UHGV virus genome: UHGV-1961940
DNA from: a virus
Length of the DNA: 20,717 bases
Direction: 5' to 3' (one strand)
Shown here: positions 1-20,622 of the stretch, in pieces
How positions within the stretch are numbered: position 1 is the first letter of the stretch
Layout of the letters: each line of letters begins with the position of its first letter
Made by a program: the position numbers and the translations under genes
The notes under the pieces: model-generated
The model's input: only the letters and a program-made list of their open reading frames with translations
Database searches by the model: none
What the model was told of the DNA's origin: nothing

Positions 1-684
1 CAGGAAGAAACTGGCAATCTGAGTTTTCGCGCTGGCAATCTGGGATTTTCCATCTTCTAATTTTTTCTTTGCATCTGCAAGTTGTGTTTTCCCGTCTTCC
101 AGTTTCTTCCTGGCATCTTCTAATTGTTTCTTACCATCTTTATATTGTTTCTTTCCGTCCTTAAGTTTCTTTTCACCGTCATCCAGTTCTTTCTTCGCAT
201 CTGCAAGTTTCTCATTGGCTTCTTTTTTGCCGTCTTCCAGTTCTTTCTTTGCATCTGCAAGCTTTTCATTGGCTTCATCCACTACTTCATCATAACGGAT
301 CTGACAACGTTCTTCCTCGATTCCCTTTACGCGTTCCTGCACTCTTTCTATCAGGCTTTCATAAGCATCCGTATAACTGATCAGATTTTGTGCCCCATGA
401 ACCTGCACATAAATCTGTGTAAATACTTCCTGATCAAAATTCTCCGGGAGTACATAAGCAAACCCGTTAACTTCACCTGAACCAAGAGTTGTATTTCCAC
501 GATTATAAGATATATAAAGAGGGCTCTCACCAATACCTACAACTGTATAATCTACATTCTGCAAAAGCTTGCTGTCCCCGTCCTGCTTCAGTGTAATCTG
601 ATCTCCGACTTCGTAACTGTTATTCTCGGCAAATATATAATCCAGAAATATCTCGCCACTCTTCTCGGGAATTCTTCCTTCCAT
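1..684 (-). CDS. FtsX/MacB-family ABC transporter permease-like protein, 5'-truncated fragment (periplasmic-core-like segment followed by coiled-coil repeat region); C-terminal part runs off the window start
   Basis: Minus-strand frame is open from 792 down to position 1 and is absent from the ORF track because it has no stop in the window. My translation reads ...VNETVNQITVMEGRIPEKSGEIFLDYIFAENNSYEVGDQITLKQDGDS... then repeated LADAKKELEDGKK / LKDGKKQ coiled-coil units. The 'EGRxPEKxGEIxLD' motif followed by such repeats matches the architecture of large YhgE/Pip-type FtsX permeases as I remember it. No N-terminal TM helix or ATG upstream of 684 (only GTG at 723/714), and in-frame stops at 793-795 and 802-804. 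Confidence 0.4.
   Translation of the reverse strand, partial: MEGRIPEKSGEIFLDYIFAENNSYEVGDQITLKQDGDSKLLQNVDYTVVGIGESPLYISYNRGNTTLGSGEVNGFAYVLPENFDQEVFTQIYVQVHGAQNLISYTDAYESLIERVQERVKGIEEERCQIRYDEVVDEANEKLADAKKELEDGKKEANEKLADAKKELDDGEKKLKDGKKQYKDGKKQLEDARKKLEDGKTQLADAKKKLEDGKSQIASAKTQIASFFL
55..300. repeat. Imperfect tandem coding repeats (~50-60 nt units) encoding coiled-coil 'L-x-D-A-K-K-x-L-E-D-G-K-K' units
   Basis: Recurring 'tgcatctgcaag' (72-83, 250-261; variant 'cgcatctgcaag' 197-208) and '(g/a)ccgtc(t/a)tccagttctttctt' blocks (~174-222 vs ~226-274). They lie inside the minus-strand permease-like frame. Confidence 0.6.
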
Positions 685-710
685 AACAGTGATCTGGTTT
701 ACTGTTTCAT

Positions 711-1196
711 TCACTGATTCCACGGAGCACTTATCGCAAACCTCAACGACATTGATAGTACCATAGTATTTATAAAGAATATAGCCAACGTATCAAACAG
801 GTTAACCTGGTGGTCGTTGATAGTCCCCATGCATTTAGGATCACGGAACATATCAAAATGAATACCGGATAATCTTTCCATTAGCATAAAGTCATAACTG
901 TAGCAGTTATGGCAGTTCAAAGCTGTTGGTGACCAGTCAGAATTGCCTGTAAGCCAACCTTCCAACTCCGAAAAATCTGCTATGCGAACTTCAAAATCTT
1001 TATAAAGAGTTTTCTTTGCCAGAATGAAGTTCTTAGCCTTTTCTATATCCTCCTCGGAGTAGTGTGTGCGGTCATTTAGAGGAAGGAACAGCATAAAACG
1101 GTTCTTATTCAGCTCTTTAAACAGACCGCAGTGATAATAAAGATCTGGGTCTTCCAGCAAACCGGATGACTCAAAATCGAAAGACCACATACTCAT
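711..1196 (-). CDS. hypothetical protein (161 aa)
   Basis: Track ORF with AAGGAGA about 7 nt upstream of the ATG at 1196. No recognisable motifs. Its 3' end overlaps the permease-like frame in a different frame. Confidence 0.5.
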   Translation of the reverse strand: MSMWSFDFESSGLLEDPDLYYHCGLFKELNKNRFMLFLPLNDRTHYSEEDIEKAKNFILAKKTLYKDFEVRIADFSELEGWLTGNSDWSPTALNCHNCYSYDFMLMERLSGIHFDMFRDPKCMGTINDHQVNLFDTLAIFFINTMVLSMSLRFAISAPWNQ

Positions 1197-1254
1197 ATAC
1201 AGTTCTCCTTAAAGGGGAGGCGGTTGTATTACCCCTCCCACTCTTTGTTAAACA

Positions 1255-3333
1255 TTAAAAAGGCGTTTCATCATCCTCAAAACCAGGGACCGGGTCAGAG
1301 GATGGATCATCGTACTGGAGGTCTTCCTGCGTGTCAACAGGCTTAACAGTAGGAGTTACAACCTTATCAGCCACAACCTTGCCCATAGGTGTTTCTACAA
1401 CTGCATGCTCCTGATCCTCAAACATAGCCTGAGGTCTCCAAACAACCTCCCCACCTTCTCCGTCTGTAAACATTTGCATTTCTTTGTCCCAGTACCAATT
1501 ACTGGCATCATGGAACTTACCTGTGTGCGGGTCCATAACCAAAGTGTCAGCAATACCTAGAGTTTTTGCTGGACGGTTTTTAAGACCTACCAGACGGACA
1601 CGTCCACGAGAACGATCCACCATTTCTTCGGCCTCGACACCTATGACTACCCAACTCAACTGTTCAAGCCCAGCCGATCCTCGCAAATTCTCTTTTCGCA
1701 CAGGATACCAGAAAGGTAATGGGTTACCATCCTTGTCCTTAGGGGGCACAATCTCTGTACGTTTGAGGTGAGCGATCACCAAGATAAACACGTTAAACTG
1801 CTTACAAAACGCAGCCAGTTGGGTCATAGCCATGTCCAGTTCTTTTCGCTCATCCTTAACATTAAGCCCTGAAATTACCATGGACAGGTGATCCAGCACA
1901 ATATAACGACAATGGTACAGGCAAACCATTTGCTTAAGCTTGGTAATCAACTCGTCCACTGGAATAGACCCGAAATGTTTGAACACTTTGATTTTTCCAG
2001 CTTTTGCCCATGATTGGTGAATCTCTGCGTGTTCTTGATCAGTTAAAAACTGGCTAGGATCTTCAACAAACTCTTTAACATCAAACCCTAACTGGTTTGC
2101 ATACAAGGAGTTAATTGCTTCCTCTGGGTCCTCCTCAAGATGAATCATGCATAGACGATCATCCTCTTCGTAATCATCAGCCTTTGGACATGTCGGGTCC
2201 ATTAGGTATCTTGCAATACAGTGTTCCAGTTTTTTAGCTACAGTTGTTTTACCGCCTCCTGATGGACCTGTAAGCATTACGAGTGTCCCTTTGTGCAAGC
2301 CTTTTAGCATTTTTTGCAGTTTTGGGAACTCTGCGCTGATATCTACCCCGTTGGAAGTCTTTTTCCGCAAAGATTCGATAGAGAAGTCTTCTAAATCCGA
2401 TACAGCATCCGGTACATACTTAACAGGATGCCGGAACATGTTTACAATATCTTCCAGCTTTTTAGCCTTCAGCATGTCACGGATATCTTTTACACCGTCA
2501 GGATCGTTTACTTCACCAGGGTACTCTACGTGGTAAACGTTATCAGCCATCAAAAATGCTGCGATATTGTGCGTAGCCTCAACACCTTTAATGACGTGTT
2601 TTTGCTTCTCTACCTCGTTAGCTGCATCGTTATCCATTGCCAGCACAACTGTTCCATAGCTACGGATAAACTTCTCATTGTTTGCAAAAGTATCTACTGC
2701 GTTTGCACATCCGCAGTTAATTCCAACAAAAGGTAGGCAGGGTTTTCCTGCCAGATCACCACCGTTGATAACTGCATCGATCCCGTCCTGTACCTCTTTA
2801 GCCCACTGCTTCACCTTTGCCGGGGCTTTAGCGTTGGTGAGAATCCCTTTTACTTGTATCTGATATGCAGCCTGCCATGCTGCAATAACATCACCTTCTC
2901 CCTCGCAAACGTTAATCTGCTTACGGTTGTTGGAAGATGCACACAGCTTTTGACCAAACATCTGGGAGTTAGCCTTTACGATGCCAACAACGGAGAAATG
3001 GCCCCTTTGCTCTTTAGGAATCGTCCAGTCGCGCTTTTTGAAACCGGACAGATTTCCGTAGCGGTCGTAATATGGGAAATATGTTGCAGTGACTGTCACA
3101 CCGTCTTCTTGGGACAATGCTGATCGCACACCAAAATATTGTGCAGCCATCAGACCGATATTTTGTTGTGGGACAGGGACAATTTTAGTATTTTCTAAAA
3201 CAGTCTCTACAGTTTCAACTTCTTTTTCATCACGATAGTCTCGTTTCACACTTCCCCCACTTTTATACTTAGTTGCTTTCGGGTTTGGCTCACCGAAACG
3301 GTTGTATGCAGATGCCATAAATTTACTTCCCAT
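1255..3333 (-). CDS. Bifunctional DNA primase-helicase (TOPRIM primase domain + DnaB/T7 gp4-like hexameric helicase)
   Basis: TOPRIM-like acidic motifs 'CEGEGDVIAAW' and 'VVLAMDNDAANE'. Helicase Walker A 'LTGPSGGGKTT', Walker B 'YIVLDHLSMV', and arginine-finger-like 'RGSAGLEQLSWVVIGVE'. RBS 'taaggagcagaattaATG'. No Cys4 zinc-ribbon seen N-terminal to the TOPRIM. Confidence 0.8.
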   Translation of the reverse strand: MGSKFMASAYNRFGEPNPKATKYKSGGSVKRDYRDEKEVETVETVLENTKIVPVPQQNIGLMAAQYFGVRSALSQEDGVTVTATYFPYYDRYGNLSGFKKRDWTIPKEQRGHFSVVGIVKANSQMFGQKLCASSNNRKQINVCEGEGDVIAAWQAAYQIQVKGILTNAKAPAKVKQWAKEVQDGIDAVINGGDLAGKPCLPFVGINCGCANAVDTFANNEKFIRSYGTVVLAMDNDAANEVEKQKHVIKGVEATHNIAAFLMADNVYHVEYPGEVNDPDGVKDIRDMLKAKKLEDIVNMFRHPVKYVPDAVSDLEDFSIESLRKKTSNGVDISAEFPKLQKMLKGLHKGTLVMLTGPSGGGKTTVAKKLEHCIARYLMDPTCPKADDYEEDDRLCMIHLEEDPEEAINSLYANQLGFDVKEFVEDPSQFLTDQEHAEIHQSWAKAGKIKVFKHFGSIPVDELITKLKQMVCLYHCRYIVLDHLSMVISGLNVKDERKELDMAMTQLAAFCKQFNVFILVIAHLKRTEIVPPKDKDGNPLPFWYPVRKENLRGSAGLEQLSWVVIGVEAEEMVDRSRGRVRLVGLKNRPAKTLGIADTLVMDPHTGKFHDASNWYWDKEMQMFTDGEGGEVVWRPQAMFEDQEHAVVETPMGKVVADKVVTPTVKPVDTQEDLQYDDPSSDPVPGFEDDETPF

Positions 3334-3483
3334 TAATTCTGCTCCTTACTACAGGCTCGTTTGCTAAGAATACAGCTTTTGCCCAGCCAATAACTGCACC
3401 ACCAGACCCGTCAAATAGACTCCACACAACACCTTTGTGGTAGTGTTCTTTGTAGATGAATTTCAATTTGCTGTCTCCTAATG

Positions 3484-3511
3484 CAAAAAGCCCCACCCTT
3501 TCGGGCAGGGC
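3484..3511 (-). terminator. Rho-independent terminator candidate (minus strand)
   Basis: Minus-strand RNA GCCCUGCCC-GAAA-GGGUGGGGC followed by UUUUUG: GC-rich stem with a 2-nt internal mismatch, tetraloop and U-tract. Sits immediately after the stop of ORF 3518-3724. Confidence 0.5.
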
Positions 3512-3517
3512 CTAGTG

Positions 3518-3724
3518 TTAAACCCGGATACCTATTGTATACTCGGTGGATACCAATGTCAAATCTAAATTTAAAATTTCTTGCATCTCATAATATGCGT
3601 CCAGGGTTAGATACATTTCCCCATCCTTTTCTACATACTTGTCCAAGTGCTTGAGGCATTTCGGATAACTATCAAGTGCAGCTTTCAGGCACTCAAACTC
3701 TGTGCTGTTGATGAATCCTTCCAT
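3518..3724 (-). CDS. hypothetical protein (68 aa)
   Basis: Track ORF in the same orientation and tightly packed with its neighbours. No motifs recognised. Confidence 0.45.
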   Translation of the reverse strand: MEGFINSTEFECLKAALDSYPKCLKHLDKYVEKDGEMYLTLDAYYEMQEILNLDLTLVSTEYTIGIRV

Positions 3725-3729
3725 CTTGG

Positions 3730-3996
3730 CTACCCGTTCTTAATGATAGCACTGTAGTGAGATTTAGCTTCCTGAATGCAATGGGTCCAAGCATCAACCT
3801 TCTCTTCGAAAAGTCCAAAGAACTTCTTTTTGGTGAGCTTCAGATTCTTTAAGTGCTTAAGCACTCGGTTGCCGATTACAGCCACATCACGAAACTTAAG
3901 AATCACTTTGTCGATATCCTCGCGACCTATTTTCACAAAACAGGCCTTACACATTTCAGGGGAGGAATAACCAACTTTCCACATAAAATCTGACAT
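3730..3996 (-). CDS. hypothetical protein (88 aa)
   Basis: Track ORF, stop 6 nt before the next start. No motifs recognised. Confidence 0.45.
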   Translation of the reverse strand: MSDFMWKVGYSSPEMCKACFVKIGREDIDKVILKFRDVAVIGNRVLKHLKNLKLTKKKFFGLFEEKVDAWTHCIQEAKSHYSAIIKNG

Positions 3997-4008
3997 ACCA
4001 CCTTCTCC

Positions 4009-4311
4009 TTATTCCTTAAAAGCTATGATATCATAGGAACTTGCAGATGATTCTGGTGAAGAATGACTCCAGTCCAGGTCATCAGAATAGTCAGCGTACT
4101 GTGCGCCACTACGCAGTTTGTATTTTACCCACTTACCTGGTGCAGGGTTTTCACCACCTTCCCATACTTCCCAGCCTTCTGGCAGGCCGTCCTGAGCGTA
4201 GTCATCCACCTCACTAATGATCTTAGGGTTTGGCACCAAGATCCCCGCAGGCTCTTCCTTCCGGATAAGTGTCCACACAGCGTATGTGTCTGAGCAGGCG
4301 CATGATAGCAA
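4009..4311 (-). CDS. hypothetical protein (100 aa)
   Basis: Track ORF on the operon strand; Trp/acidic-rich. An antisense ORF (4063-4293 +) and an overlapping one (4125-4322 -) are less likely. Confidence 0.4.
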   Translation of the reverse strand: MLSCACSDTYAVWTLIRKEEPAGILVPNPKIISEVDDYAQDGLPEGWEVWEGGENPAPGKWVKYKLRSGAQYADYSDDLDWSHSSPESSASSYDIIAFKE

Positions 4312-4402
4312 AGTATATCCACTATTCAGAACTTCTGCAAGCTCTTTTCAGCATCTTCCAATTTGGCTAAGTGGTATTGGATAATCTTCACACCTGTAAT
4401 CA

Positions 4403-4708
4403 TCAGAAACCTCCCACTTCTTCAGCAAATGCAGCTGCTGTCGTCGCTGCATCCAGATAGGACTCTAGTTCACGGGCTGCACGTTTGTAAATTGAGTGGC
4501 GCATATCGTTTGGCAGTTGGTGGGAGTCCACCTCTTCACCGTTGTGGTAAACATGCACATCGGTGATTTGTCTAAATCCGTAACAGTCAACATCAGAATC
4601 CCGGCACTCCGGATCTGGCAACTGAACAACTGCCTGAGCTTCCACAGTAAACATATCGTCAAGTTCGAAATCGATTTCAAAAGTGTATGGTTTATAACGT
4701 TTCATCAT
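4403..4708 (-). CDS. hypothetical protein (101 aa)
   Basis: Track ORF immediately upstream of the methyltransferase stop, same strand. Confidence 0.4.
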   Translation of the reverse strand: MMKRYKPYTFEIDFELDDMFTVEAQAVVQLPDPECRDSDVDCYGFRQITDVHVYHNGEEVDSHQLPNDMRHSIYKRAARELESYLDAATTAAAFAEEVGGF

Positions 4709-4721
4709 TTGATTGTACTCT

Positions 4722-6047
4722 TTATTGATCAGAATTATCTTTCGTAATTAAGGTCTGGGTAAGTTTGTAATAGCGGAAGCCACCGCCACCTTGCCAGCTT
4801 GCAGACTTAGAAATACCACCTTGATCTTCACCATCAATCACTTTTTGCAAGCGAGGGATAATATGGGTATGACAATGATCACCCAGTTCGATCAAGATCC
4901 AACGTCTTTTCATCTTGTGGGCTACAGCAGCAGTAGTTCCCGAACCGCCGAATGAATCCAATACCAAATCACCTTCTCGCGTACACATTTCGAGAATCCG
5001 CTTCAAAAGCGCTTCTGGTTTTTTTCCATTTTTGAAACTAACGCCGCCTTCATTTGCTATTCCATTCCAACTAATGTCTGTCCAAACATCAGTTATTAGT
5101 TCCGCAGGTTGCATCTCACCGTCAATTTCCAAAAGCCTGTTGGAGTAAAAGACCATTTGCCTACCATTTGCGATATAAAATCCTTCAACATCCTCATTCG
5201 GATGTACATAAACCTTATCCCTATCTTTCTTTGACTTCTCGATAGTTTCTTTTCTCTTTATTTTAGCGCCACCACCAATTGCAACAGATTGAAATACACG
5301 TTCTGCATTATCAATTGCGAATTGTGCTAATTCATCATCGAATGTATCAGGCAGTTTTTTCTTGGCTTCTTTTGCATCTTTATAGCCATTGGCCTTTGCA
5401 AACGCATCGGCAATACCGCACCACGTCCAATTTTTATAATGGTCATCCGGGTTTAATAGGTATTTGTTATATCCTGTATCATACCCTTTAGGTATATAGA
5501 TTTTGTTAAGCGGTTTCTGGGTGCGATCTTTTGCATATACAAGCAAAAAGTTTGCTGTGGAGAAAACTGTGGCTCCTGTTGCCTTAAATCCCGAAGGGGA
5601 ATTTGTGGTCATCGATATGGTATTTAACTGATTTGCACGACCAAAAATCTCGTCCATCAAAACTTTTAAATACGCCATTTCGCAATCATCTAAGTGAACG
5701 AATATTACCCCATCATCACTTAGAAGATTACGAATTATTTCTAACCTATCCCTCATTAAGCCCAGCCAAATGGAATGCTCCAGGCTATCATCGTAATGCT
5801 CAAAAGCCCTCCCGGTATTGAATGGTGGGTCTATGTAAACACACTTCACTTTGCCTGCATACTCTTGCTCTAGCGCCTTCAATGCTAATAAGTTATCTCC
5901 AAAAATCAGTTTATTATCAAAAATATCGTTTTCGGTCACTTTCTGGCTGTGGTAAGATTTGCTAGAATCTTCTAACAAAATGTGTGGCTCTAACTTTTTG
6001 CGCTCGTTTTTACCTATCCAGGTAAGTTCTAATTTGGTTTTGCTCAT
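4722..6047 (-). CDS. Site-specific DNA methyltransferase, beta-class (N6-adenine or N4-cytosine; Mod-like / N6_N4_Mtase family); apparently orphan
   Basis: Motif IV 'IDPPFN' near the N-terminus (residue ~73) and AdoMet motif I 'DSFGGSGTTAAVA' near the C-terminus, giving the beta-class permuted order. N-terminal 'MSKTKLELTWIGKNE' is typical of Mod-type methyltransferases. No restriction-endonuclease partner recognised among neighbours. Confidence 0.85.
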   Translation of the reverse strand: MSKTKLELTWIGKNERKKLEPHILLEDSSKSYHSQKVTENDIFDNKLIFGDNLLALKALEQEYAGKVKCVYIDPPFNTGRAFEHYDDSLEHSIWLGLMRDRLEIIRNLLSDDGVIFVHLDDCEMAYLKVLMDEIFGRANQLNTISMTTNSPSGFKATGATVFSTANFLLVYAKDRTQKPLNKIYIPKGYDTGYNKYLLNPDDHYKNWTWCGIADAFAKANGYKDAKEAKKKLPDTFDDELAQFAIDNAERVFQSVAIGGGAKIKRKETIEKSKKDRDKVYVHPNEDVEGFYIANGRQMVFYSNRLLEIDGEMQPAELITDVWTDISWNGIANEGGVSFKNGKKPEALLKRILEMCTREGDLVLDSFGGSGTTAAVAHKMKRRWILIELGDHCHTHIIPRLQKVIDGEDQGGISKSASWQGGGGFRYYKLTQTLITKDNSDQ

Positions 6048-6074
6048 CGTTTGGTGCTCTCCTTAGTTTTTTGT

Positions 6075-6091
6075 GGGGAGGAGGCCTCCCC
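6075..6091. other. GC-rich hairpin (GGGGAGG-agg-CCTCCCC) in the intergenic gap upstream of the methyltransferase start
   Basis: 7-bp perfect stem read directly. On the coding (minus) strand it is followed by an A-run rather than a U-run, so it is not a canonical terminator for the operon. Confidence 0.3.
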
Positions 6092-6108
6092 TTTATACTC
6101 ACATCTTA

Positions 6109-6492
6109 CTACTCAAGGTCTTCAGAGTCAAGCTCAAAAAGAATCAAACTGTGCATGCCTGCAGATAGATTAACACACCCTGCAACAATAAGGGTCTGAT
6201 AGTAAGGTTCAGCACCCTCAATGTCTTCGTTAAAATCCACAACAAGGTAGTCACCTTTGTTAAAGGTGTATTTGTCCGATGTAAACGCAAAACCTGCCCA
6301 GTCCCCTACTGCAGGGTCTTTATCAGTCACCTTTGTTAACAGTAGATCTTTTTCACGGGATCTTTTAGTAAAATCGTGAATCACAACATCCTTCTCTTCA
6401 GGAGTTGGATTGCCACACACGTAGTTAACTATATTTCTCCACAAACTCATACGTCCCCTCTTCGGCTCTGGTTTCAAAATCTTTCCTGACAA
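6109..6492 (-). CDS. hypothetical protein (<=127 aa; start uncertain)
   Basis: Track ORF begins with TTG at 6492 and overlaps the helicase 3' end by 68 nt. An internal ATG at 6450 would shorten the overlap. Confidence 0.3.
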   Translation of the reverse strand: MSGKILKPEPKRGRMSLWRNIVNYVCGNPTPEEKDVVIHDFTKRSREKDLLLTKVTDKDPAVGDWAGFAFTSDKYTFNKGDYLVVDFNEDIEGAEPYYQTLIVAGCVNLSAGMHSLILFELDSEDLE

Positions 6493-7816
6493 TTTTGTCT
6501 AAGTCAGGGAATGTTGTATTGTAAAACTCTACGACTCGCGGGTCAACAATAATGTCAACTTCTCTTAGTGGACGCAACAAGTTTATTCCTTGTATTGTCT
6601 TAACCCGACTCAAAGCAACATACGTCATCCCAGGAGAGAAAGCTCCGTTCTTTCCAAGGTCCAGGTTGTAACAATCTAGCGTAAGTCCTTGACTTTTATG
6701 AGATGTTACGGCATACCCAGATTTCAGAGGAAGTTGCCTGTATGACCCAATCACTACCCTCTCTATAAACTTCTCCATCTTCCTTTCTGCAATGTTGTAT
6801 CTCTGAGATGGCTTATACTCGTTATTTTCCCACAACCTCTGCTCTATGTCAACCTGTGTTCCATCTTCAAGCTCTACCACCACCGCCTTGTTCTTAAATT
6901 TAACAATTGTGGCACGTGTTCCGTTAACATAATAAGGTACTTTGTGCGTCGGGTCAACATCGTTGGCGGTTATCATAACTTTCATGCCAATTTTCAACTT
7001 CATCTCCTGCTCAACTGGCAGGGTGGAGGGAAACTTACCCTTCATTTCACCAGTGTATACCTTCTCTGGGGCGTTGATGGCATCATAGAACCTTCTGTTC
7101 ACTTCCTCTGCTTGTTTGTTGGTGGCGCAAATTGTGAGAGCGTCTGTTGGTACACCGCCTTTGTAACAGCGAGCATTAAGTTCTGCTACAACCTCTTTTA
7201 TGCGACGACCCTCACGAACACAGTTGAGCATTGTGGCAAATCGAATAGACTCCTGTCGGAACTGGTCTATTAGGGCTATGTTGTGAAGGTCCAGCTCTTT
7301 CCAAGATTCGGTATAGCAACATAGGTCTGTGTGGTAGAAGTTGAAGTAGGCCTCCTTCTCCATAGAAGAGACAACAGGAGGTGCCTGGTAAAAATCGCCA
7401 AACAATATGACCTGTATGCCTCCGAAAGGTTTGTCATTTTTTCGAAGGAAGCGGAGTTTTCTATCCATCTCTATAAACTTATCAGCACGGATCATAGAGA
7501 TTTCATCGATAATTAGGATGGTAAATGCCTTGCTTTTCAAAGGCTTTGCTGTTTTTGCCCTTATTGCAGTCCAGTCAGACTCCATGCTCACACCTGCTGC
7601 AAGATCGAAGGTTCGGTGTGCTGTTGCTCCATTAACGTTTAAAGCGGCTACCCCTGTCGGGGCAACCGTTATGCAAGAGTCTCCATACATTGACTGGATC
7701 ATGTTGATGAGGTACGTCTTCCCACAACCTGCGGGTCCTGAAACGAAGACATTCTCCCCACTCATGATTGCAACAAGGGCAGCATCTGTGCCTACATCAT
7801 ACTGCCCTTTTTCCAT
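6425..7816 (-). CDS. SF1B DNA helicase, Pif1/RecD/Dda-like
   Basis: Walker A 'VSGPAGCGKTY', Walker B 'ILIIDEISM', 'FGDFYQAPPV' motif, 'AVTSHKSQGLT' and 'YVALSRVK' C-terminal motifs characteristic of the Pif1/RecD/Dda family. Confidence 0.85.
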   Translation of the reverse strand: MEKGQYDVGTDAALVAIMSGENVFVSGPAGCGKTYLINMIQSMYGDSCITVAPTGVAALNVNGATAHRTFDLAAGVSMESDWTAIRAKTAKPLKSKAFTILIIDEISMIRADKFIEMDRKLRFLRKNDKPFGGIQVILFGDFYQAPPVVSSMEKEAYFNFYHTDLCCYTESWKELDLHNIALIDQFRQESIRFATMLNCVREGRRIKEVVAELNARCYKGGVPTDALTICATNKQAEEVNRRFYDAINAPEKVYTGEMKGKFPSTLPVEQEMKLKIGMKVMITANDVDPTHKVPYYVNGTRATIVKFKNKAVVVELEDGTQVDIEQRLWENNEYKPSQRYNIAERKMEKFIERVVIGSYRQLPLKSGYAVTSHKSQGLTLDCYNLDLGKNGAFSPGMTYVALSRVKTIQGINLLRPLREVDIIVDPRVVEFYNTTFPDLDKIVRKDFETRAEEGTYEFVEKYS

Positions 7817-9021
7817 TACGCCTCCTCGTAGATAATGTCGATGATGTTACCATCACGGTCAACTACGTATTCAATCGGATCGCCATCTTTGCGTGATTCC
7901 GGTGCTGCTACGATTTCGTAGCGGCATGCACGGCACTTAGCACTGTTGTGTTGGTATGGCACACTAACCACATCCGCAGGGTCAACCATAACCATCATTA
8001 CAGTGCCATAGCCCGCTGCATACTCTTTGCTGGCGCAGTGCAGGCCATAAGAACACGCAGCTTCCGGATCATCTTCTACAAAGTTACGAGGCATGGACAC
8101 AAAAGCACCCTGGTATTGTGGAACTTTACCGCTGTGCCAATCCACCCACCTGCTCCCGTTAAACTGAACCCCCTTATAGCAAATGATTCGACCATCTTCT
8201 GCAACCTGGATGTCATTAGCCTGCATGAAATCGTAGAGCATGTTCACAGATTTTGCAGACGGGTTGCGTAGCAGACGGACAAGGAATTTAACATATCGGT
8301 CGTCCAGTGTTCCATCTACATAATCTTCCTCAATTTTCTTTGCAATGGTGGATCGCATCTCTACACCGTAGTAGTAGAGCTTACCATCTTTCATGATCAG
8401 GTTGTCTGCAAGTGTGGTGAACTCATTCTTGCGTTCCAGCCAGACAAGGATTTCACCAATTGCCTCATCATATTCCTGAACAGAAATATGGTCGAAGACT
8501 TTCTGGTAAACTTCCTCACTTTCGCTGCGGCGAATTTCAAAAATGCCTTCGTTGCAGGTGATCTGGAGGAGTTCCCCGCAAATAACTACCAAAGGCTCGA
8601 TGCTTCGAGACTGTTGCTGAGACACACTGCTCACTACTTCCAGCACCGGATCTTTGACTTCTACTAAAGGTTCTTCTGACTTGATTGCTACCCCAGTGAA
8701 CCCCACACCGTGAACAACACACAGTGGGTATACCACGCCCCAACGTTTAACGGAACCTTCACCTGAATCTAAGATCATGGCGTACTTACCGTTGTCTTCC
8801 AGTCCGTAGCGGAATAAACGGGCCTCTTCGCGGGTTTCAAAATCCTCACGGGTATAGCAGACACTGTCTCGGTCAGGATCAAACAGCTCTGGGGCACCTA
8901 CTGCCAGTGTCCATGTTGTAGTACCTTTCTCAATAGCACATGTGAAACCCTTCTTCTCAAGTTCTGCACGGCGGTCGCGTGCTTCTTTACGAGTTTTGAA
9001 ATGTTCGTAGATGAAAATCAT
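7816..9021 (-). CDS. rIIB: rIIB-like protein
   Basis: C-terminal half aligns by eye to T4 rIIB as I remember it: '...NPSAKSVNMLYDFMQANDIQVAEDG...MPRNFVEDD...SYGLHCASKEYAAGYG...VDPADVVSVPYQHNSAKCRACRYEIV' against the T4 '...NPSQKAVSRLFDFLVANDIEITEDG...MPR...DDD...GLHVCSK...HPRDVVSIP...NDAKMRTCQYEVV' pattern. Lies directly downstream of the rIIA-like gene. Confidence 0.75.
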   Translation of the reverse strand: MIFIYEHFKTRKEARDRRAELEKKGFTCAIEKGTTTWTLAVGAPELFDPDRDSVCYTREDFETREEARLFRYGLEDNGKYAMILDSGEGSVKRWGVVYPLCVVHGVGFTGVAIKSEEPLVEVKDPVLEVVSSVSQQQSRSIEPLVVICGELLQITCNEGIFEIRRSESEEVYQKVFDHISVQEYDEAIGEILVWLERKNEFTTLADNLIMKDGKLYYYGVEMRSTIAKKIEEDYVDGTLDDRYVKFLVRLLRNPSAKSVNMLYDFMQANDIQVAEDGRIICYKGVQFNGSRWVDWHSGKVPQYQGAFVSMPRNFVEDDPEAACSYGLHCASKEYAAGYGTVMMVMVDPADVVSVPYQHNSAKCRACRYEIVAAPESRKDGDPIEYVVDRDGNIIDIIYEEA

Positions 9022-9031
9022 AGCTGTCTCC

Positions 9032-11014
9032 TTATTTGGTGTTATTCTTTGCGTCGATCAGTTCACGGTATTCAATCATAGCAGGAGTGTCCCAATATTT
9101 CAAGCCCACATGCTTCAAAAGTGGATATTTCTTTTCCAATCTTGCAATATAGGCCTTCCCGCACTTGACTCGGTTGGCGATTAAGATTTTGGCACGATGA
9201 TTTAGCTCACTGTGCTTCCACGCGGTGTTACCTTCCCACTTGTGGAAATGTGGCCGATAATTTCCAAAATCTTGCATGGGGATAATTTTCCCTAATTGTC
9301 TATACAGGCTGTCATATGAAGTTTCATTTGCTGCGCGAGTCAGTAAGAATTTCCAAGCATCCTCTTTCAACAAATGTTCCACATTCTTCTCTGTAACATA
9401 CTGGCAATCAGGATCAGTCCAAAGCAGACGAGATTCTGATACCAAGTACAGATCTTCACCTTCAGGAATCTGGAGTGCAGCACGCACACGGTCATAATTT
9501 TGCTGGTAGATGTTACTCAGCTGTCCCAGCCAACAACTTCCACGTTGGATATCACCCTCATAAGGAATGCAGTGCTTAATCTTCTTGAACTCTGCCTTAG
9601 TAATACGTTCACGACGGAAGTAACCATCCTTCTCAAGCTTTTTAACCCAATAACCTGGCTCGTAATGAGTTTTTGTTTCACCTTTCTTCGCAGGTCGGCG
9701 AGGGAGCTCTGATAACAATTTGACAGTATCTGCAAAGAACGGATGGTGTGCCGCCTCTTTAAACTCTTTCACCAGATCCGTGTTCCGGCAATAGAAAACG
9801 TTGCGTCCGGTGATTTCGCTTAAGTAGTTACACTTATTTCGGTTATATTTACCATCTCCGTCGTTAAATACAAGGTATACACCTCGTAAGAACTCCGACT
9901 TTCCGTAACGAGCATAGCCTATGCGGCCTTTATTTAAGCCGCCAGCGAAAATTTCACAATCGCCTAAGTCGCCAAGCCCTGTTTCTTCCCAACGGTTCCA
10001 CATAAAGTTTTTGCCGAAGATGTGTCCGAACACTCCACTATTCTTCATCATTTCACGTGCTTCTGCGGAGGTTTTTGCCGTCTCCAGTTCTGCAATAACT
10101 TCTGCCCCGCGAAGACGTATACCTTCTTTGACAAAGGCCTCCAGGCGATCCTGGAATCCACCGTCGTCATGGCCCTCTATGGTCCATTCACGCCCAGGGT
10201 TAATATTGCAATCCCCAATAGGAATTTCCACGCAGATTGCAGGGTAATCGGTCAATGTCTCCAGGAACTTGGAGCGGTAAGGTTGGTGACCCATCACAAC
10301 ACGGCTCTCATCAGAACTGGTATAACCTTTCAGGATGGTCATTTTCCAGCCATCCTTCTCGTAATGATACTGTGCCTCAACCTTGTCACCTTCTAACATC
10401 TTACTGGTCATAGGATCGGTGACGATGAACGGAAACTTCGCATAGCGTAAGCACGATGCAATAGCAGTGCAATATTTCAGGACATGCTCTTTCTTAACAT
10501 GGAACTGAACTTTTACCCCGTTGTGCTCTTCAGTCTTCCGCTCACGGATCTTGGTAACGTTTGGGATACCCTGATCCAAGAACAATAGATATGTGCTTTC
10601 AACACCATTGTGCACACTGATCACATCGAAAGTGTCCACCATACTGAACGGAGCCTTTGAACCAACACCTTTATTACCTACCAGAGCGTTGCTGTTGCGC
10701 TTGGTTGACTCCCCGAGATTCATGAAAGTGTTGCGGACCATCTCTTCTGACATGCCCAATCCAACGTCCTGCACAAAGAAGTATGGTTCAAGGTCTGTAG
10801 GAGAGTGAATGATGATCGGTACATCACCCCGTCCAGACTCAACATGGGAGTCCACAGCATTGAAGATTGGTTCACGGCAGCTTGCCAGCACCTTATCTTC
10901 GTAAATCCCTTTAATGATTAGCCCAAAAGTCTCTTTGTTCAGAGAAATTGAGCCCCTGGTGACCTCCATATTTCCGGTCAGCACTGCTTTAGTTTCATTA
11001 CTGTTTACAATCAT
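9032..11014 (-). CDS. rIIA: rIIA-like protein with N-terminal GHKL (histidine-kinase-like) ATPase domain
   Basis: GHKL boxes: N-box 'REPIFNAVDSH', G1 'VQDVGLGMS', G2 'VGNKGVGSKAPFSMVDTFDVISVHNG'. These resemble the T4 rIIA N-terminal 'RELITNMIDAH...DFGPGMS...[25 protein letters not shown]' as recalled. Followed by rIIB-like gene in the canonical order. Confidence 0.75.
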   Translation of the reverse strand: MIVNSNETKAVLTGNMEVTRGSISLNKETFGLIIKGIYEDKVLASCREPIFNAVDSHVESGRGDVPIIIHSPTDLEPYFFVQDVGLGMSEEMVRNTFMNLGESTKRNSNALVGNKGVGSKAPFSMVDTFDVISVHNGVESTYLLFLDQGIPNVTKIRERKTEEHNGVKVQFHVKKEHVLKYCTAIASCLRYAKFPFIVTDPMTSKMLEGDKVEAQYHYEKDGWKMTILKGYTSSDESRVVMGHQPYRSKFLETLTDYPAICVEIPIGDCNINPGREWTIEGHDDGGFQDRLEAFVKEGIRLRGAEVIAELETAKTSAEAREMMKNSGVFGHIFGKNFMWNRWEETGLGDLGDCEIFAGGLNKGRIGYARYGKSEFLRGVYLVFNDGDGKYNRNKCNYLSEITGRNVFYCRNTDLVKEFKEAAHHPFFADTVKLLSELPRRPAKKGETKTHYEPGYWVKKLEKDGYFRRERITKAEFKKIKHCIPYEGDIQRGSCWLGQLSNIYQQNYDRVRAALQIPEGEDLYLVSESRLLWTDPDCQYVTEKNVEHLLKEDAWKFLLTRAANETSYDSLYRQLGKIIPMQDFGNYRPHFHKWEGNTAWKHSELNHRAKILIANRVKCGKAYIARLEKKYPLLKHVGLKYWDTPAMIEYRELIDAKNNTK

Positions 11015-11511
11015 TTATTGCGCTCCTTGTAGTAGATATGGCTCCCGAATTGAGTTGTCCTCTGCATCTTTTTTGCCCATTTCGGTCGTACTTTGGTTGT
11101 ATGGTAGTGTGTTGCTCCACCTGTTATGTCCATAGCCATGTATGCAACATGGTTGTTATTATAGACCTTTATAAGCATCTTTGCAAGACTTTTAGCGTGA
11201 TCCCATGAATCTTTTTCTGTCACCTTAAAAGTTTTGCCGTGGTTTGTCCACGAAAACTGGTTAGGTTGGTAGACAATCTTTCTTATAGTGTCTGGGTATT
11301 TAGGGTGGGATTTCCTGTTTAGTGTGGCAAACCCAGATGCCAGCATACCCATCGTGCCATCTCCTCTAGCTTCCCTGTAGATATTGCATGCCAGAATGTT
11401 TTCCTTAGTATCTGATGGCTTGCAAGTATGATATACTTTTTGTTTTGGTGCTGCAACAACAGGCAGCGATAAAAGTGCGCTCAAAATAATAGCAAAGATC
11501 TTAATTTTCAC
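11011..11511 (-). CDS. Secreted cell-wall hydrolase, SleB/Hydrolase_2 family (probable lysis enzyme)
   Basis: N-terminal signal peptide 'MKIKIFAIILSALLSLPVVAAP'. SleB-family motifs 'NIYREARGDG', 'FATLNRKSHPKYPDTIRKIVYQPNQFSW'. GTG start at 11511 with a GGAG RBS. Confidence 0.75.
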   Translation of the reverse strand: MKIKIFAIILSALLSLPVVAAPKQKVYHTCKPSDTKENILACNIYREARGDGTMGMLASGFATLNRKSHPKYPDTIRKIVYQPNQFSWTNHGKTFKVTEKDSWDHAKSLAKMLIKVYNNNHVAYMAMDITGGATHYHTTKVRPKWAKKMQRTTQFGSHIYYKERNK

Positions 11512-11520
11512 AATGACTCC

Positions 11521-11548
11521 AAATAGAAAATCCCCGCCGAAGCGGGGG
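11521..11548 (-). terminator. Rho-independent terminator (minus strand)
   Basis: Minus-strand RNA CCCCGC-UUCG-GCGGGG stem-loop followed by UUUUCUAUUU. Lies between the stop of the upstream ORF (11561) and the lysin RBS. Confidence 0.6.
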
Positions 11549-11560
11549 AGGTCTTAGAAA

Positions 11561-11943
11561 TTAATCGTAGTGTGCCAAAATCTCTCCATCGTTGCAAGTT
11601 CCCTCTACAAAGTTATGAAGATTCATGCACTCATCTTGATAGAAGAATTTACCGCTTTTCAGCCGTAGGCCAAACAACTCCGCATCTCCACGATGGCAAG
11701 CCTCTACAAGTTCATAGATTTCATACGGCAACTCTCCGTCGTCATGGAAGAATCCAGCCTTATCGTTGACATAAATGAAGAAATAATCACTGCTATCGCA
11801 AGCGTCCAATATTTTAAACCAGACTTCATCTACATCTTTTTCTCGGATATCGATCACGCAAGTGGAACTGCATTCGTACTCCTTCTCCGGCTCCTCGGTC
11901 AATACCACCAGGTAGTTTCCCCGCTTACCTACTTTAGCCATAC
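11561..11943 (-). CDS. hypothetical protein (~126 aa from ATG 11943; track ORF extends to 11989)
   Basis: ATG at 11943 is preceded by 'AAGGGGG' and avoids the 38-nt overlap with the upstream gene. No motifs recognised. Confidence 0.5.
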
Positions 11944-11951
11944 AACCCCCC

Positions 11952-13136
11952 TTAAGCTTTAGCCAAAATGGCGCTAAACTCTTCACCAAACTCTTTTACA
12001 ATCTTCATCAGGTTTGGGTATGCTTTGATCAGCTGAGCAACAATCTTGTCACGCCCTTTACCGATAAGCAAGGCATTTCCTAAGGCATTAGGTTTCATCA
12101 TCGCCATAAAGACTGAGAATACAAAATCTCGGTTCTCGTCCTTGAAGTTTTCCCAAAGGAAATCGAGGAAGTTTGCCACGCAGCTGACAAGATCTTCGTC
12201 TGAGATACTTGCATTTTCCATCATATTGCGAATAGCGATACAACCTTCAGATCCAAGAATCCACAAAATGTCTGGCTGCTTAGGACCTACGTATTCTTTG
12301 CAGCCACCTGCCATAATCCGACCGATTTCCGGTAAATTACGTTTCTTGGTGTGGTAAGTCCAGATCTCTACCGCTGCAGTGTGACCAATAGCACCTTGTA
12401 GAAGAACACGGGCCATAGCGTCAGAAATAATACCGCTGTCAAAATCGTGCAAGATGTCAGATGCAGCAACCCAAGATCGTGGTGTGGCAAAAGATGGACA
12501 ATTAATCTCAGCCATAGCCTCATAATTATCAATAGCTGATGGAACTCTTTTCAGATACCCAATTACAGAGGAGTGAACCCCGTTGAGGAATGCGTAGTCC
12601 TCAATAAACACCTCTGCATTGCTTGTAACCTCTACAATGATAAAACGGTTAGCCAGAGGGGCTTCGAGCGCCGAAAGAACCGCACCATCTGTAGAACGGT
12701 TACCCGCAGCCACAAAAACAGAACCCTTAGGGAATGCATAGGTGCCGCACTTGTGGTCAAGCATAATTTGCATTGCAACCTTTTGCAGGTAGTTATCTGC
12801 ATGAGTGAGCTCATCCAGAAAGATAATTCCGCTCCAGTCAGGATCCGCAGGCCAAAATTCTGGAATTGCAAACACTGTACGTGTAGTTCCATCCGCTTCT
12901 ACAGGGATAGGTAGCCCAGATAAGTCGGCAGGATCTTTATCTGACAGTCGCACGTCAACAAGGTTGTCATCTCGCTCACCGAACATATTATCAGCGATCT
13001 GCTTCATCACCTGGCTTTTACCCACACCCATTGGTCCCAAAATTAGGACAGATCGGCTATGACGTTGGGCAAACTGAATAATAGCTGGCAACTCACGGAC
13101 AGTGATTTGACCACTTTCGAATACGTTTCTTGACAT
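11952..13136 (-). CDS. MoxR-like AAA+ ATPase (AAA_5 / CbbQ-NorQ-CobS-like)
   Basis: Walker A 'LILGPMGVGKSQ', Walker B 'IIFLDELTHAD', and a sensor-1 region 'VFVAAGNRSTDGA...LEAPLANRF' that resembles the MoxR 'ATxNP...L..A..DRF' pattern. Confidence 0.8.
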   Translation of the reverse strand: MSRNVFESGQITVRELPAIIQFAQRHSRSVLILGPMGVGKSQVMKQIADNMFGERDDNLVDVRLSDKDPADLSGLPIPVEADGTTRTVFAIPEFWPADPDWSGIIFLDELTHADNYLQKVAMQIMLDHKCGTYAFPKGSVFVAAGNRSTDGAVLSALEAPLANRFIIVEVTSNAEVFIEDYAFLNGVHSSVIGYLKRVPSAIDNYEAMAEINCPSFATPRSWVAASDILHDFDSGIISDAMARVLLQGAIGHTAAVEIWTYHTKKRNLPEIGRIMAGGCKEYVGPKQPDILWILGSEGCIAIRNMMENASISDEDLVSCVANFLDFLWENFKDENRDFVFSVFMAMMKPNALGNALLIGKGRDKIVAQLIKAYPNLMKIVKEFGEEFSAILAKA

Positions 13137-13405
13137 TAGTAAAAGTCCTCTACTTGTGTGTAAGTGTTTTCAAAGTTTTCCAAAACAGATATCACATCGA
13201 ATCTGTCAATATCATACGTGACTCTCCAGTTGTACGCAACCCTTTCTGCTGTTGCCTCTTCTGGCGCTAGTCGTCTGCTGGCATAAAAGAGTGTTGGAGT
13301 ACACTTTCTTGCTTGCCCTCTAACTTTCCCATAATAATATCTGTGAATATCTTTGTCAAAATTTAACTCTTTTTCTGCACGAAGTTCATATTGCTGGTAT
13401 AACAT
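13136..13405 (-). CDS. hypothetical protein (89 aa)
   Basis: Track ORF; its stop overlaps the AAA+ ATPase start. Confidence 0.4.
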   Translation of the reverse strand: MLYQQYELRAEKELNFDKDIHRYYYGKVRGQARKCTPTLFYASRRLAPEEATAERVAYNWRVTYDIDRFDVISVLENFENTYTQVEDFY

Positions 13406-13449
13406 CTCTACTACTCCTTAAGCAGCATCCTTGCCGCCATTCCTGCCCA

Positions 13450-13830
13450 CTAAAATGCAGTCCGAATCCAGACAAGGTTCTTATCTGCCCAATCATAGAG
13501 GCAAGTCATTGCACTATTGAATTGCTCACACGGAGGATAATCTTCTTCCATCTGGCGCATAGCAGAGCCTTGTGGGTAAAGCTCCCGTGCTGCAAACCAC
13601 GCATCGTAGTCATCAACGGTGTCGAAGTAGTATACAACATCCTCTAACTCAGGATCGAACTTTGAACTATCAGGATCCAGTTGTTCAGGGAACTTGGAGC
13701 GTAACTTGCCAGCCACAATACTTGCCAACTCGCTAACATGCTTATTGTCCCACTCCACTAGCTTCCCGTCTTCAGTGATGCGTCCTAACCACTGATCATG
13801 AAGGTCAACTGTTGTCTTCCACTGAGCCAT
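13450..13830 (-). CDS. hypothetical protein (126 aa), acidic and Trp-rich
   Basis: Track ORF in the operon orientation. Confidence 0.45.
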   Translation of the reverse strand: MAQWKTTVDLHDQWLGRITEDGKLVEWDNKHVSELASIVAGKLRSKFPEQLDPDSSKFDPELEDVVYYFDTVDDYDAWFAARELYPQGSAMRQMEEDYPPCEQFNSAMTCLYDWADKNLVWIRTAF

Positions 13831-13832
13831 TA

Positions 13833-14090
13833 TCAGTCCACCTCTTCTTCTCGTTGTAGTTCAAGATACCCGTAGGTCTGGACATCTTGAAGGGTGTGGA
13901 ACTCCCCCTCTGCCGCTAAGGCACGAACAACTTGGCACAAAACCTTATGAGGAACTTCATCCAAACCTAGATTCAGTGCAGGAAACACCTTATCTAAGTC
14001 AACAAAATAAACGAACTGTAGCTCACCAGCTTCAAAAGGTGTATCTTCAATAAACATCTTCTCGGCATTAGTCAAGATCTGCACTTTCAT
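13833..14090 (-). CDS. hypothetical protein (85 aa), acidic C-terminus
   Basis: Track ORF; ATGA start/stop overlap with the upstream gene at 14090. Confidence 0.45.
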   Translation of the reverse strand: MKVQILTNAEKMFIEDTPFEAGELQFVYFVDLDKVFPALNLGLDEVPHKVLCQVVRALAAEGEFHTLQDVQTYGYLELQREEEVD

Positions 14091-14446
14091 TATTCTACCT
14101 CCTCTTCTTTTTCTTCGGCATTAGTTTCATGGCTACCCCACTCGGGAGTTTCCACCTCGATAGTAAACTCACGCACTACACGGTAATTGCCCATGAAGCG
14201 CTCTACTTCGTCAAGGCTTATGGAGAGGCCATTGGCAACCAGGTCTGCAGCACCCTCTTCTACCAGGTAGTCCAGATTGGCTTCCAGAGCCTCAGGTTCA
14301 AACCCTGTCAATGCAATCAGATAACCTTCCCCTTCATCAGGGAGGACAATACAGCCCAATTGATTTTCTTTAAAAAGGCAGTGACCATCATTATTGATTG
14401 GGTGTTCATTGCAGTAAATAGCTGCACGATAAGTAACTTTAGACAT
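14090..14446 (-). CDS. hypothetical acidic protein beginning MSKVTYRA (118 aa from ATG 14446; track ORF starts at TTG 14467)
   Basis: AAGGAG RBS 9 nt upstream of the ATG at 14444-14446, and an in-frame TGA two codons upstream of the TTG. The start region lies inside the 29-bp inverted repeat. Confidence 0.5.
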   Translation of the reverse strand: MSKVTYRAAIYCNEHPINNDGHCLFKENQLGCIVLPDEGEGYLIALTGFEPEALEANLDYLVEEGAADLVANGLSISLDEVERFMGNYRVVREFTIEVETPEWGSHETNAEEKEEEVE

Positions 14447-14451
14447 CGGTA
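14423..14451. repeat. Left copy of a perfect 29-bp inverted repeat (reverse complement of 16285-16313)
   Basis: Checked base by base: the reverse complement of 14423-14451 is 'taccgatgtctaaagttacttatcgtgca', identical to 16285-16313. Both flanks mismatch immediately outside the 29 bp. Confidence 0.9.
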
Positions 14452-14459
14452 AGGTCTCC

Positions 14460-14738
14460 TTAGGCAATTGTCATTTTACATTCTTGAAATTTTAACACAA
14501 GACGGTAATTGTGTCTAGTGTCTAAAAAGATTTTTTCAACCATCAGGCACACGGTATAACCGTCCATCTTGTTGACAACAAAATCTCCAGGATGAGGGAG
14601 GATGTCTCCCGGATTGGGGAAACATAGTCCACTCAGAAAGGCATCGTCAGTGGTGGACTTAATAGATTTCCACACACTGTCTGCCTGAACATGTTCACCG
14701 ACGTAATATACATTACCACATGCCTTCATCATAGTCAA
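14460..14738 (-). CDS. hypothetical protein (92 aa)
   Basis: Track ORF; ATGA overlap with the upstream 299-aa gene. Its TAA stop overlaps the RBS of the next gene. Confidence 0.45.
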   Translation of the reverse strand: MTMMKACGNVYYVGEHVQADSVWKSIKSTTDDAFLSGLCFPNPGDILPHPGDFVVNKMDGYTVCLMVEKIFLDTRHNYRLVLKFQECKMTIA

Positions 14739-15634
14739 ACCCTCGCATAAATTAAACTTGTATCAGTATACTTCTTTAATGGGTAAATATCCTGTCCATA
14801 GATGCAATCATTAAACACCTCATCTACCCAAAGGCTACACTTATATCCCATCATTTCTAAAACACCCATCTCTTCTTCGGTAAACTTATCACCGCTCTTG
14901 CAAGATGTCAATACCTCATTCTGAACTCTTGCTACCTCGAAGCGGTTATTGGCAATATCGCTATTGGCGATCAAATACTCACCTAGAGGGTGTGCGGCAT
15001 TAAAGATGCACAGTGGACGGCTGACGTAATAGTCTCCAGGTGTATAAAAATTGTTGAGGTCTTTCACTAGAACATTCTTATCAGTCACTTCATTTATAAC
15101 ATCATGCATATCGCACATCTTTATATGTTTGAGGATTCCATCCCCCATCACAAAATAAAAACTTGCTGAGACACTTTCGGCATAGATCTTACTAGATCCG
15201 TTGTAGTTGTATTTTACTCGGATGCTAACGGGGGTTTTTCCTGTCGCGTTAGCCATCATCCAAAGAAATGGCAGCTCATACTTCTCCTCTGAGGAAACAA
15301 AAGGTGAGGTAGCCAGAGATCGAAAACCTCCAGAGAAGTTGAAAGTTACAGAACCGCTCCGGCGGTATGATACCGCGTATTCTACTTTTATATCGACATA
15401 CCCATTGGAATAGGTGTGTCCTTCATTATCTAAATATGTCCACTTATCAGACCCAGATACCAATCTACGCTCAATAACCTTCATCACTATAGGAATTAAT
15501 GGGTTGGTACAAACCGCTTTTGAAGTAGCTTTATCATCTAAAGCCTCGTAAATTGCAGAAAGGATGTCCCCAGCTGAAAGATTGGTTGTTATGTCCTGTT
15601 TCCACCGCGTACTAAAACTGTTAAGATTTGCCAT
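14735..15634 (-). CDS. hypothetical protein (299 aa), first gene of the leftward operon
   Basis: AGGAG RBS 9 nt upstream of the ATG at 15634, and a near-consensus promoter directly upstream. No motifs recognised. Confidence 0.6.
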   Translation of the reverse strand: MANLNSFSTRWKQDITTNLSAGDILSAIYEALDDKATSKAVCTNPLIPIVMKVIERRLVSGSDKWTYLDNEGHTYSNGYVDIKVEYAVSYRRSGSVTFNFSGGFRSLATSPFVSSEEKYELPFLWMMANATGKTPVSIRVKYNYNGSSKIYAESVSASFYFVMGDGILKHIKMCDMHDVINEVTDKNVLVKDLNNFYTPGDYYVSRPLCIFNAAHPLGEYLIANSDIANNRFEVARVQNEVLTSCKSGDKFTEEEMGVLEMMGYKCSLWVDEVFNDCIYGQDIYPLKKYTDTSLIYARV

Positions 15635-15674
15635 AAGTAAGTGCTCCTATGTTAGTTTTCTTTCGAATGGGTGC

Positions 15675-15703
15675 ACTATATTGTGGAGTTAGAGTAAAGT
15701 CAA
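15675..15703 (-). promoter_or_regulatory. Sigma70/SigA-type promoter for the leftward operon (-35 TTGACT, 17-nt spacer, -10 TATAGT)
   Basis: Minus-strand reading 'TTGACT ttactctaactccacaa TATAGT': -35 at 15698-15703, -10 at 15675-15680, about 40 nt upstream of the ATG at 15634. Confidence 0.45.
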
Positions 15704-15721
15704 CACGTTTTTGATGTTGAC
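15699..15721. promoter_or_regulatory. Palindrome GTCAACA-N9-TGTTGAC spanning back-to-back -35 elements (candidate operator)
   Basis: Perfect 7-bp inverted arms at 15699-15705 and 15715-15721. The left arm contains the leftward -35; the right arm contains TTGACA (15717-22), which with 17-nt spacing to 'TACGAT' (15740-45) gives a possible rightward promoter. Confidence 0.4.
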
Positions 15722-16754: not shown

Positions 16755-16759
16755 TGACA

Positions 16760-16774
16760 GGGGCCAATGGCCCC
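16760..16774 (+). other. Palindromic hairpin GGGGCCA-a-TGGCCCC between the 347-aa gene stop and the VWA gene
   Basis: Perfect 7-nt arms read directly, followed by a T-rich 'ttctggagtttta'. It contains the ATG at 16767, suggesting the real start of the next gene is ATG 16788. Confidence 0.3.
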
Positions 16775-18248: not shown

Positions 18249-18263
18249 GAGAGGAGGTTATTT

Positions 18264-18527
18264 ATGGCAACAGAGTTAAAATTTGCATCAAACCGTAAAA
18301 CTAAGAAGTATCTGTCCTCAGTAGCTCCAGGCACTGTGGTGATGTTTGTTGATGAACTTGGGGATGTGAATACAGCACTTGTTGTAAAATCACATCCTGC
18401 AAACATATATGTTGGGGTATTTGACCTGTTCAGAAAGGTGTTTGTAGAACTGCCTCACAGTTTGGTTGTTACAGAAATGGATGCCTGCATAGAAATTCTT
18501 GGCGAAGTTATGGTGGAGGAACAATAA
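18264..18527 (+). CDS. Small protein, paralog family member A (87 aa)
   Basis: RBS 'GAGGAGG' upstream. Shares 'MAT...F.S..K.KK...GTVV...VK...FDL...LP...VTE.D..I.ILGE' with the next ORF. Confidence 0.6.
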   Translation: MATELKFASNRKTKKYLSSVAPGTVVMFVDELGDVNTALVVKSHPANIYVGVFDLFRKVFVELPHSLVVTEMDACIEILGEVMVEEQ

Positions 18528-18790
18528 TGGCTACCAGCATTGTATTCAATTCTAAGGTGAAGAACAAAAAGCGTGCAGACAGTTTTCCGTGTGGGACCGT
18601 GGTAAGTTGCGACGGAGACGGCATTCAAAACATAGTTATGATTGTCAAAACAGGAGAACATTGTGTGTGGGGGTTCGATTTAGAAAATAATGAGTTGTAC
18701 GATCTGCCGCCAAACATGAAAGTTACAGAGCTTGACACCAAAATTACCATCCTTGGAGAGACAAGCTATTCAAAAGAAGGAGGAGAATAA
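18527..18790 (+). CDS. Small protein, paralog family member B (87 aa)
   Basis: Start overlaps the preceding stop; GGAGG RBS. About one third identical to member A by eye. Confidence 0.6.
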   Translation: MATSIVFNSKVKNKKRADSFPCGTVVSCDGDGIQNIVMIVKTGEHCVWGFDLENNELYDLPPNMKVTELDTKITILGETSYSKEGGE

Positions 18791-19053: not shown

Positions 19054-19054
19054 T

Positions 19055-19288: not shown

Positions 19289-19304
19289 CAAAAAGGAGAT
19301 AGCC

Positions 19305-19996: not shown

Positions 19997-19998
19997 TC

Positions 19999-20565: not shown

Positions 20566-20622
20566 AAAGGTGAGTTATAAGGTATTCATACACCTACCAA
20601 CAATACAACAGGAGAGACTAAG

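Follow-up and report, generated by a model that had tools for sequence, protein, structure and literature searches.

The window, by which we mean the whole 20,717-nt stretch of DNA that was analysed (UHGV-1961940), holds DNA from three sources: an internal fragment of a Blautia permease gene, a short piece of a gut Bacteroidales gene and a long segment of an rV5-like Escherichia phage genome. The features discussed below are as follows:

1-14, no strand: left fold-back terminus, the exact reverse complement of 99-112; 1-9 have no Blautia match and 10-14 are shared (5-nt microhomology).
10-723, minus strand: codons 105-342 (of 1258) from within the gene for a duplicated FtsX/MacB_PCD ABC-transporter permease of Blautia; 713/714 nt identical to CAKRWH010000004.1.
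44-276, minus strand: imperfect 21/42/63-nt tandem repeats encoding a K/E/D-rich coiled coil; a repetitive tract at the contig end.
711-1196, minus strand: 161-aa ORF, formed by the polymerase stump and about 22 further codons that run on through Bacteroidales and Blautia DNA until a stop occurs by chance.
720-723, no strand: Junction B, 4-nt microhomology CCAC (plus) or GTGG (minus), common to Blautia and Bacteroidales.
724-780, plus strand: gut Bacteroidales piece of 57 nt, the sense strand of a DUF4301 gene (…GALIANLNDIDSTIVFIKN…), within an exact match over 720-784.
781-784, no strand: Junction A, 4-nt microhomology ATAG (plus) or CTAT (minus), common to Bacteroidales and phage; an imperfect match (10/11) covers 781-791.
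781-1196, minus strand: codons 1 to 138-139 (of 809), the 5' stump of a family-A DNA polymerase gene of Vequintavirus, with the exonuclease motif region.
781-20711, no strand: rV5-like Escherichia phage genome segment, collinear with isolates at 98-99.9% identity.
20709-20717, no strand: right fold-back terminus, reverse-complementary to 20449-20457; the final 6 nt (20712-20717) depart from the phage references (3-nt microhomology).

A reading frame on the minus strand is open from position 792 to base 1 of the window, has in-frame stops at 793-795 and 802-804 and lacks a start codon, as had been described from the sequence alone. A protein search with this frame returned ABC-permease-like proteins of gut Clostridia, the best at 81% identity and aligned only from query residue 24 onward, and a scan of species-representative genomes identified a Blautia MAG (CAKRWH010000004.1) that matches residues 24-261. 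Over positions 10-723 the window differs from this MAG by a single mismatch at 452, and at the protein level 237/238 aa are identical. The full-length Blautia donor, a protein of 1258 aa, combines a TM helix and a MacB_PCD domain with ~480 aa of coiled coil and two FtsX domains (PF02687; 99.6 bits), and its gene (L003 5689-9465) lies directly downstream of an ABC ATPase gene (L003 4926-5678; ABC_tran, E 1e-36). The fragment in the window spans the end of the extracellular MacB-like domain and the start of the long coiled-coil insert. In contrast to the donor locus, the window has no TM1 and no FtsX domain, and the greater part of the coiled coil is missing, as is the ATPase partner, whose position is taken by Bacteroidales and phage DNA.

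The sequence-only reading had noted that the frame lacks an N-terminal TM helix, and this is borne out: the fragment contains neither a hydrophobic segment nor an FtsX match, and the highest Kyte-Doolittle 19-residue mean in the frame is 0.69, as against 1.9-2.7 in the eight TM-like segments of the donor. Its proposal of a segment resembling the MacB periplasmic domain holds for the Blautia part. The MacB_PCD model (PF12704) scores weakly on the fragment alone (E 0.0015, 19.3 bits, under the gathering score of 27) but solidly on the full-length donor (49.2 bits), where we counted the MacB-like core domain as present; the proposal fails for 724-792, where there is no permease sequence. The window carries a permease gene fragment and no permease gene, and the fragment is incapable of function.

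The repeats that had been noticed in this frame are real, with 21- and 63-nt periods over 50-171 and a 53-nt unit present six times over 44-276, and they encode coiled-coil heptads. Their attribution to a permease of the YhgE/Pip type is not supported: the donor is of the FtsX/MacB type, and no YhgE/Pip model in NCBIfam matches either the fragment or the 1258-aa donor (E<=1e-3). The NCBIfam models that do match fragment and donor are of only two kinds, coiled-coil (SMC/Rad50-like) and FtsX/LolCE-type. YhgE/Pip proteins share with the donor a large size, membrane location, an extended extracellular region and an origin in Bacillota, whereas the donor has FtsX (PF02687) membrane domains and a MacB_PCD extracellular domain. 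Since the permease is not YhgE/Pip by these models, the suggestion that the phage might carry a fragment of a phage receptor does not apply.

The donor belongs to an unusual family of duplicated FtsX permeases of ~1250 aa, in which a first extracellular MacB-like domain is followed by the ~480-aa coiled coil. Members are widespread in Lachnospiraceae, Oscillospiraceae and Clostridium and are always fragmented at the repeats in short-read assemblies. A protein conserved among phages was also considered as the source of the region and gained no support, as homologues of the fragment in the phage database are only 28-39% identical and sit in unannotated faecal or "phage" fragments. The records concerned (MT835791, MT835833, OR848768 and others) are unannotated, many of them 1.6-6 kb long, and go by such names as "Bacteriophage sp.", "Listeria phage" and "Enterococcus phage"; such records may reflect contamination with bacterial DNA, or fragments submitted as phage sequence.

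Between the Blautia and phage parts lies DNA of a third origin. In the species-representative genome scan, the Bacteroidales contig DAAP01000003.1 matched the window over 720-791 at 71/72 positions, with an exact run over 720-784, and the DUF4301 gene to which this run belongs is single-copy. A 57-mer search of metagenome contigs recovered three human-gut contigs, each collinear with the Bacteroidales contig at 99% identity. In all four of these independent contigs the 57-nt piece stands in its normal Bacteroidales context (4/4), and in none is it part of the chimeric junction (0/4). The first ~23 codons of the minus-strand frame (724-792) contain no permease sequence, being derived from the antisense of the Bacteroidales piece and from the last part of the polymerase stump on the phage side, and the frame is open across the Bacteroidales piece by chance alone. 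A diverged permease N-terminus at 724-792, for which a shared 'YGT' motif could be cited, was rejected for the same stretch, as it is an exact Bacteroidales match.

The remainder of the window aligns with phage genomes over nearly its whole length. In megablast comparisons with phage genomes, positions 781-3389 shared 99.9% identity with Escherichia phage APECc02, many further rV5-like isolates of Vequintavirus reached 98-99%, and positions 3390-20711 matched phage ime at 99.3% in one single piece. The genes of this segment include a primase/helicase, an adenine methyltransferase, a Dda-like helicase, rIIB, rIIA and anti-sigma factors, among others. Both nucleotide identity and gene order are those of Vequintavirus isolates, with collinearity over 781-3389 and over 3390-20711, and by these measures the phage part is assigned to a lytic E. 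coli rV5-like phage (Vequintavirus).

Several further observations were made on this segment and its relatives. At 3373-3389 (flanks 3323-3496) the window lacks 621 bp, or 207 codons in frame, that are present in APECc02, SYGMH1 and nomine. The loss falls in a 254-aa gene downstream of the primase/helicase, which some records annotate as a putative site-specific or Dcm-like methylase, and leaves a remnant ORF of 47-57 aa; the joint lies inside a 16/17-nt direct repeat, CAGCTTTTGCCCAG[C/T]CA, that encodes (D/G)WAKA. One record, MG065646.1, is contiguous across this joint at positions 1-109, the very start of the record. Either a deletion that occurs naturally or another product of template switching could account for the joint. 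On the plus strand, three 87-aa ORFs abut one another in succession (18264-18527, 18527-18790 and 18790-19053, together 18264-19053), have counterparts in ime_165-167 and look like a tandem gene triplication. Finally, 16 records named "Campylobacter phage", with C. jejuni given as host, share at least 90% identity with Vequintavirus genomes of E. coli, and their labelling or host assignment looks doubtful.

The phage segment ends within a gene. In the alignment of the window to APECc02, identity runs down to 781 and is followed by no similarity at all, which places the breakpoint inside the polymerase gene: in APECc02 the gene adjoining the primase/helicase encodes an 809-aa DNA polymerase (APCEc02_012). 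Polymerase codons 1 to 138-139 are identical in the window, APECc02 and other rV5-like phages, whereas non-phage DNA stands in place of the remaining ~670 codons and of everything upstream in the window. At position 801, 20 nt into the phage side, the window differs from APECc02 by a single C/T change; the rest of 781-1000 is identical. The 161-aa ORF consists of polymerase residues 1-139 (to ~138-139) followed by ~22 unrelated codons and is, by this alignment, a truncated essential gene with a junk tail and no real gene; no gene for such a chimeric product is on record among called genes. The sequence-only reading had the permease frame overlapping the 3' end of this ORF in another frame, and the overlap is there (711-792), but the supposed neighbouring gene is a polymerase stump. 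The join has removed 83% of an essential DNA polymerase gene. Among relatives with an identical primase/helicase, an intact polymerase of 809-1248 aa adjoins it in 10/10 contigs examined.

A natural insertion site for a mobile element at the breakpoint was considered and rejected, as the polymerases of four relatives, when aligned, are polymorphic after residue 671 and near residue 809 and not near codon 138. Across rV5-like phages the DNA polymerase, encoded by the gene after the primase/helicase (e.g. L048 6138-9884), occurs in forms of 809, 925, 1132 and 1248 aa. Some of this variation is due to an insertion of 323 aa after residue 671, whose weak match to a Hint domain, below threshold, suggests an intein. 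A second kind is found where an HNH endonuclease gene lies downstream, and there a C-terminal part of ~116 aa is split off.

Both joints between the three sources cut genes in their middle, Junction B within the permease and Junction A within the phage DNA polymerase, and each has four nucleotides common to the two sequences that it joins. In simulated random joins of the same sequences, microhomology of at least 4 nt arose with P≈0.016 per joint, or ~2.6e-4 for both. Each terminus of the window is, in addition, a short fold-back, that is, the reverse complement of sequence further inside; the right-end fold-back, with just 9 nt of which 6 are novel, provides weaker support than the left. Exact-match searches for the junction strings in two collections, viral_contigs and JGI metagenome_contigs, found no copy, and this absence from the two collections is weak negative evidence.

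These features resemble those described for chimeras that form during MDA, of which more than 85% were inverted with intervening deletions and more than 70% had junctions with 2-21 nt of complementarity (Lasken & Stockwell 2007, PMC1855051). The joints in the window fall in that range, the two inter-genome joints having 4 nt each and the left and right fold-backs 5 and 3 nt. Inverted segments with an intervening deletion are likewise present, together with novel bases that are missing from the donor references, although the right end is a modest example. With MDA/phi29 chimeras the window thus has in common the junction microhomology (here 3-5 nt), inverted fold-backs at short distances and joins in the middle of genes. 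It differs in that such chimeras are mostly intramolecular, whereas the central joins of the window are intermolecular and bring together genomes of different phyla. This speaks against template switching to the extent that inter-genome joins are the minority class among MDA chimeras.

On balance, we consider it highly probable (roughly 0.93) that the seam between permease and phage is that of a chimeric contig, seeded by MDA-like template-switch chimeric molecules or reads, and not a feature of any genome; this assessment is drawn from comparison of sequences. From the anatomy of the junctions, a laboratory or assembly artefact is the most likely origin, and the sample was most likely a human-gut metagenome or virome. 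The window would be the whole, or a terminal piece, of such a contig. The alignments establish the three sources and their breakpoints directly, whereas the way in which the joints formed and the completeness of the contig are inferred. The joints would have arisen when a polymerase switched templates in phi29/MDA-type amplification, or by a library artefact of comparable effect. The phage path and the Blautia path would then be bridged in the assembly by one or a few triple-chimeric reads, and the assembler would walk along the Blautia gene until it met the coiled-coil tandem repeats, where the contig would stop. These steps would leave, as by-products, the fragment of permease gene, the 161-aa ORF and the frame that is open across 724-792.

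Other ways of bringing the three sequences together were weighed against template switching. The closest in kind is a library artefact without it, in which small fragments are ligated at blunt ends into a concatemer. The 57-nt middle piece does resemble a small fragment ligated between two others, but blunt-end ligation predicts no microhomology, and at least 4 nt at both joints would be expected with P≈2.6e-4 under random joining; the fold-back ends are also left unexplained. We regard ligation as unlikely, and template switching as the process that probably formed the joints. A purely computational misjoin, arising by collapse of a de Bruijn or overlap graph or by a scaffolding error with no chimeric molecule behind it, is very unlikely. 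Metagenome and virome assembly is documented to yield chimeric contigs, and commonly so (PMC3100316, PMC3901335), and the contig end does fall in a repeat tract. Against this, four exact nucleotides per joint are far under any assembler's k-mer or overlap length, the window contains no Ns, and the 57-nt middle piece would demand two independent graph errors. Because so short a shared sequence is much less than graph collapse needs, at least one molecule or read must itself be chimeric and contain the joints.

The remaining alternatives hold that the seam exists in nature. In one, illegitimate recombination mediated by microhomology added Bacteroidales and Blautia sequence in vivo to defective or packaged rV5-like phage DNA. 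This process likewise leaves short microhomology of the kind seen at both joints, so that the 4 nt would also fit it, and the three sources are all members of the gut community. The donors, however, come from two phyla outside the infection range of a coliphage, and with 83% of its essential polymerase gene gone the hybrid molecule would have no capacity for phage replication. The event would also have to be very recent, given the near-100% identity to each of the three donors, the same contig bears fold-back ends typical of artefacts, and the junction was found in no other contig searched, while the relatives are intact. A real hybrid, which if true would mean that a virulent phage had captured DNA across phyla in the gut, is on these grounds highly improbable. 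The related proposal of the sequence-only reading, a host-derived fragment carried by the phage, is contradicted by the same locus: Blautia, a member of Bacillota, is not the host, a 57-nt Bacteroidales piece lies in between, and the polymerase is cut. That reading had also offered a prophage or contig junction inside a host permease gene. A genuine discontinuity, a contig junction next to a truncated bacterial permease, is indeed present, and a truncated bacterial gene abutting phage genes is what an attachment junction would produce; as a prophage border, however, it has a negligible probability and is refuted by the assignment of the sources. Complete genomes of lytic Vequintavirus phages are collinear with the phage part, the breakpoint lies within the polymerase ORF and thus at neither a genome end nor an att site, and the flank is Blautia DNA with a Bacteroidales spacer, which is not that of the phage's host. 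Moreover, neither the phage part nor bases 1-780 found a match among 5,426 complete E. coli genomes (0/5,426), no tRNA occurs in the window and no integrase is encoded among the ten ORFs scanned. A comparison of composition, which had been recommended for telling the two sides apart, did not discriminate between them (GC ~0.40-0.42 in 1-780 and 0.37-0.50 in the phage part). Neither of the outcomes that had been named as counting against the earlier proposals, a conserved phage structural protein or an intact ORF, was found, and the evidence points to a chimera instead.

The value of a chimeric contig of this kind lies in quality control. Such contigs can be mis-scored as a provirus boundary, as a host-range link between a coliphage and Blautia, or as a phage-borne auxiliary or receptor gene. 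The breakpoints, together with the 4-nt microhomologies and the fold-back ends, offer a concrete signature by which chimeric contigs may be flagged.
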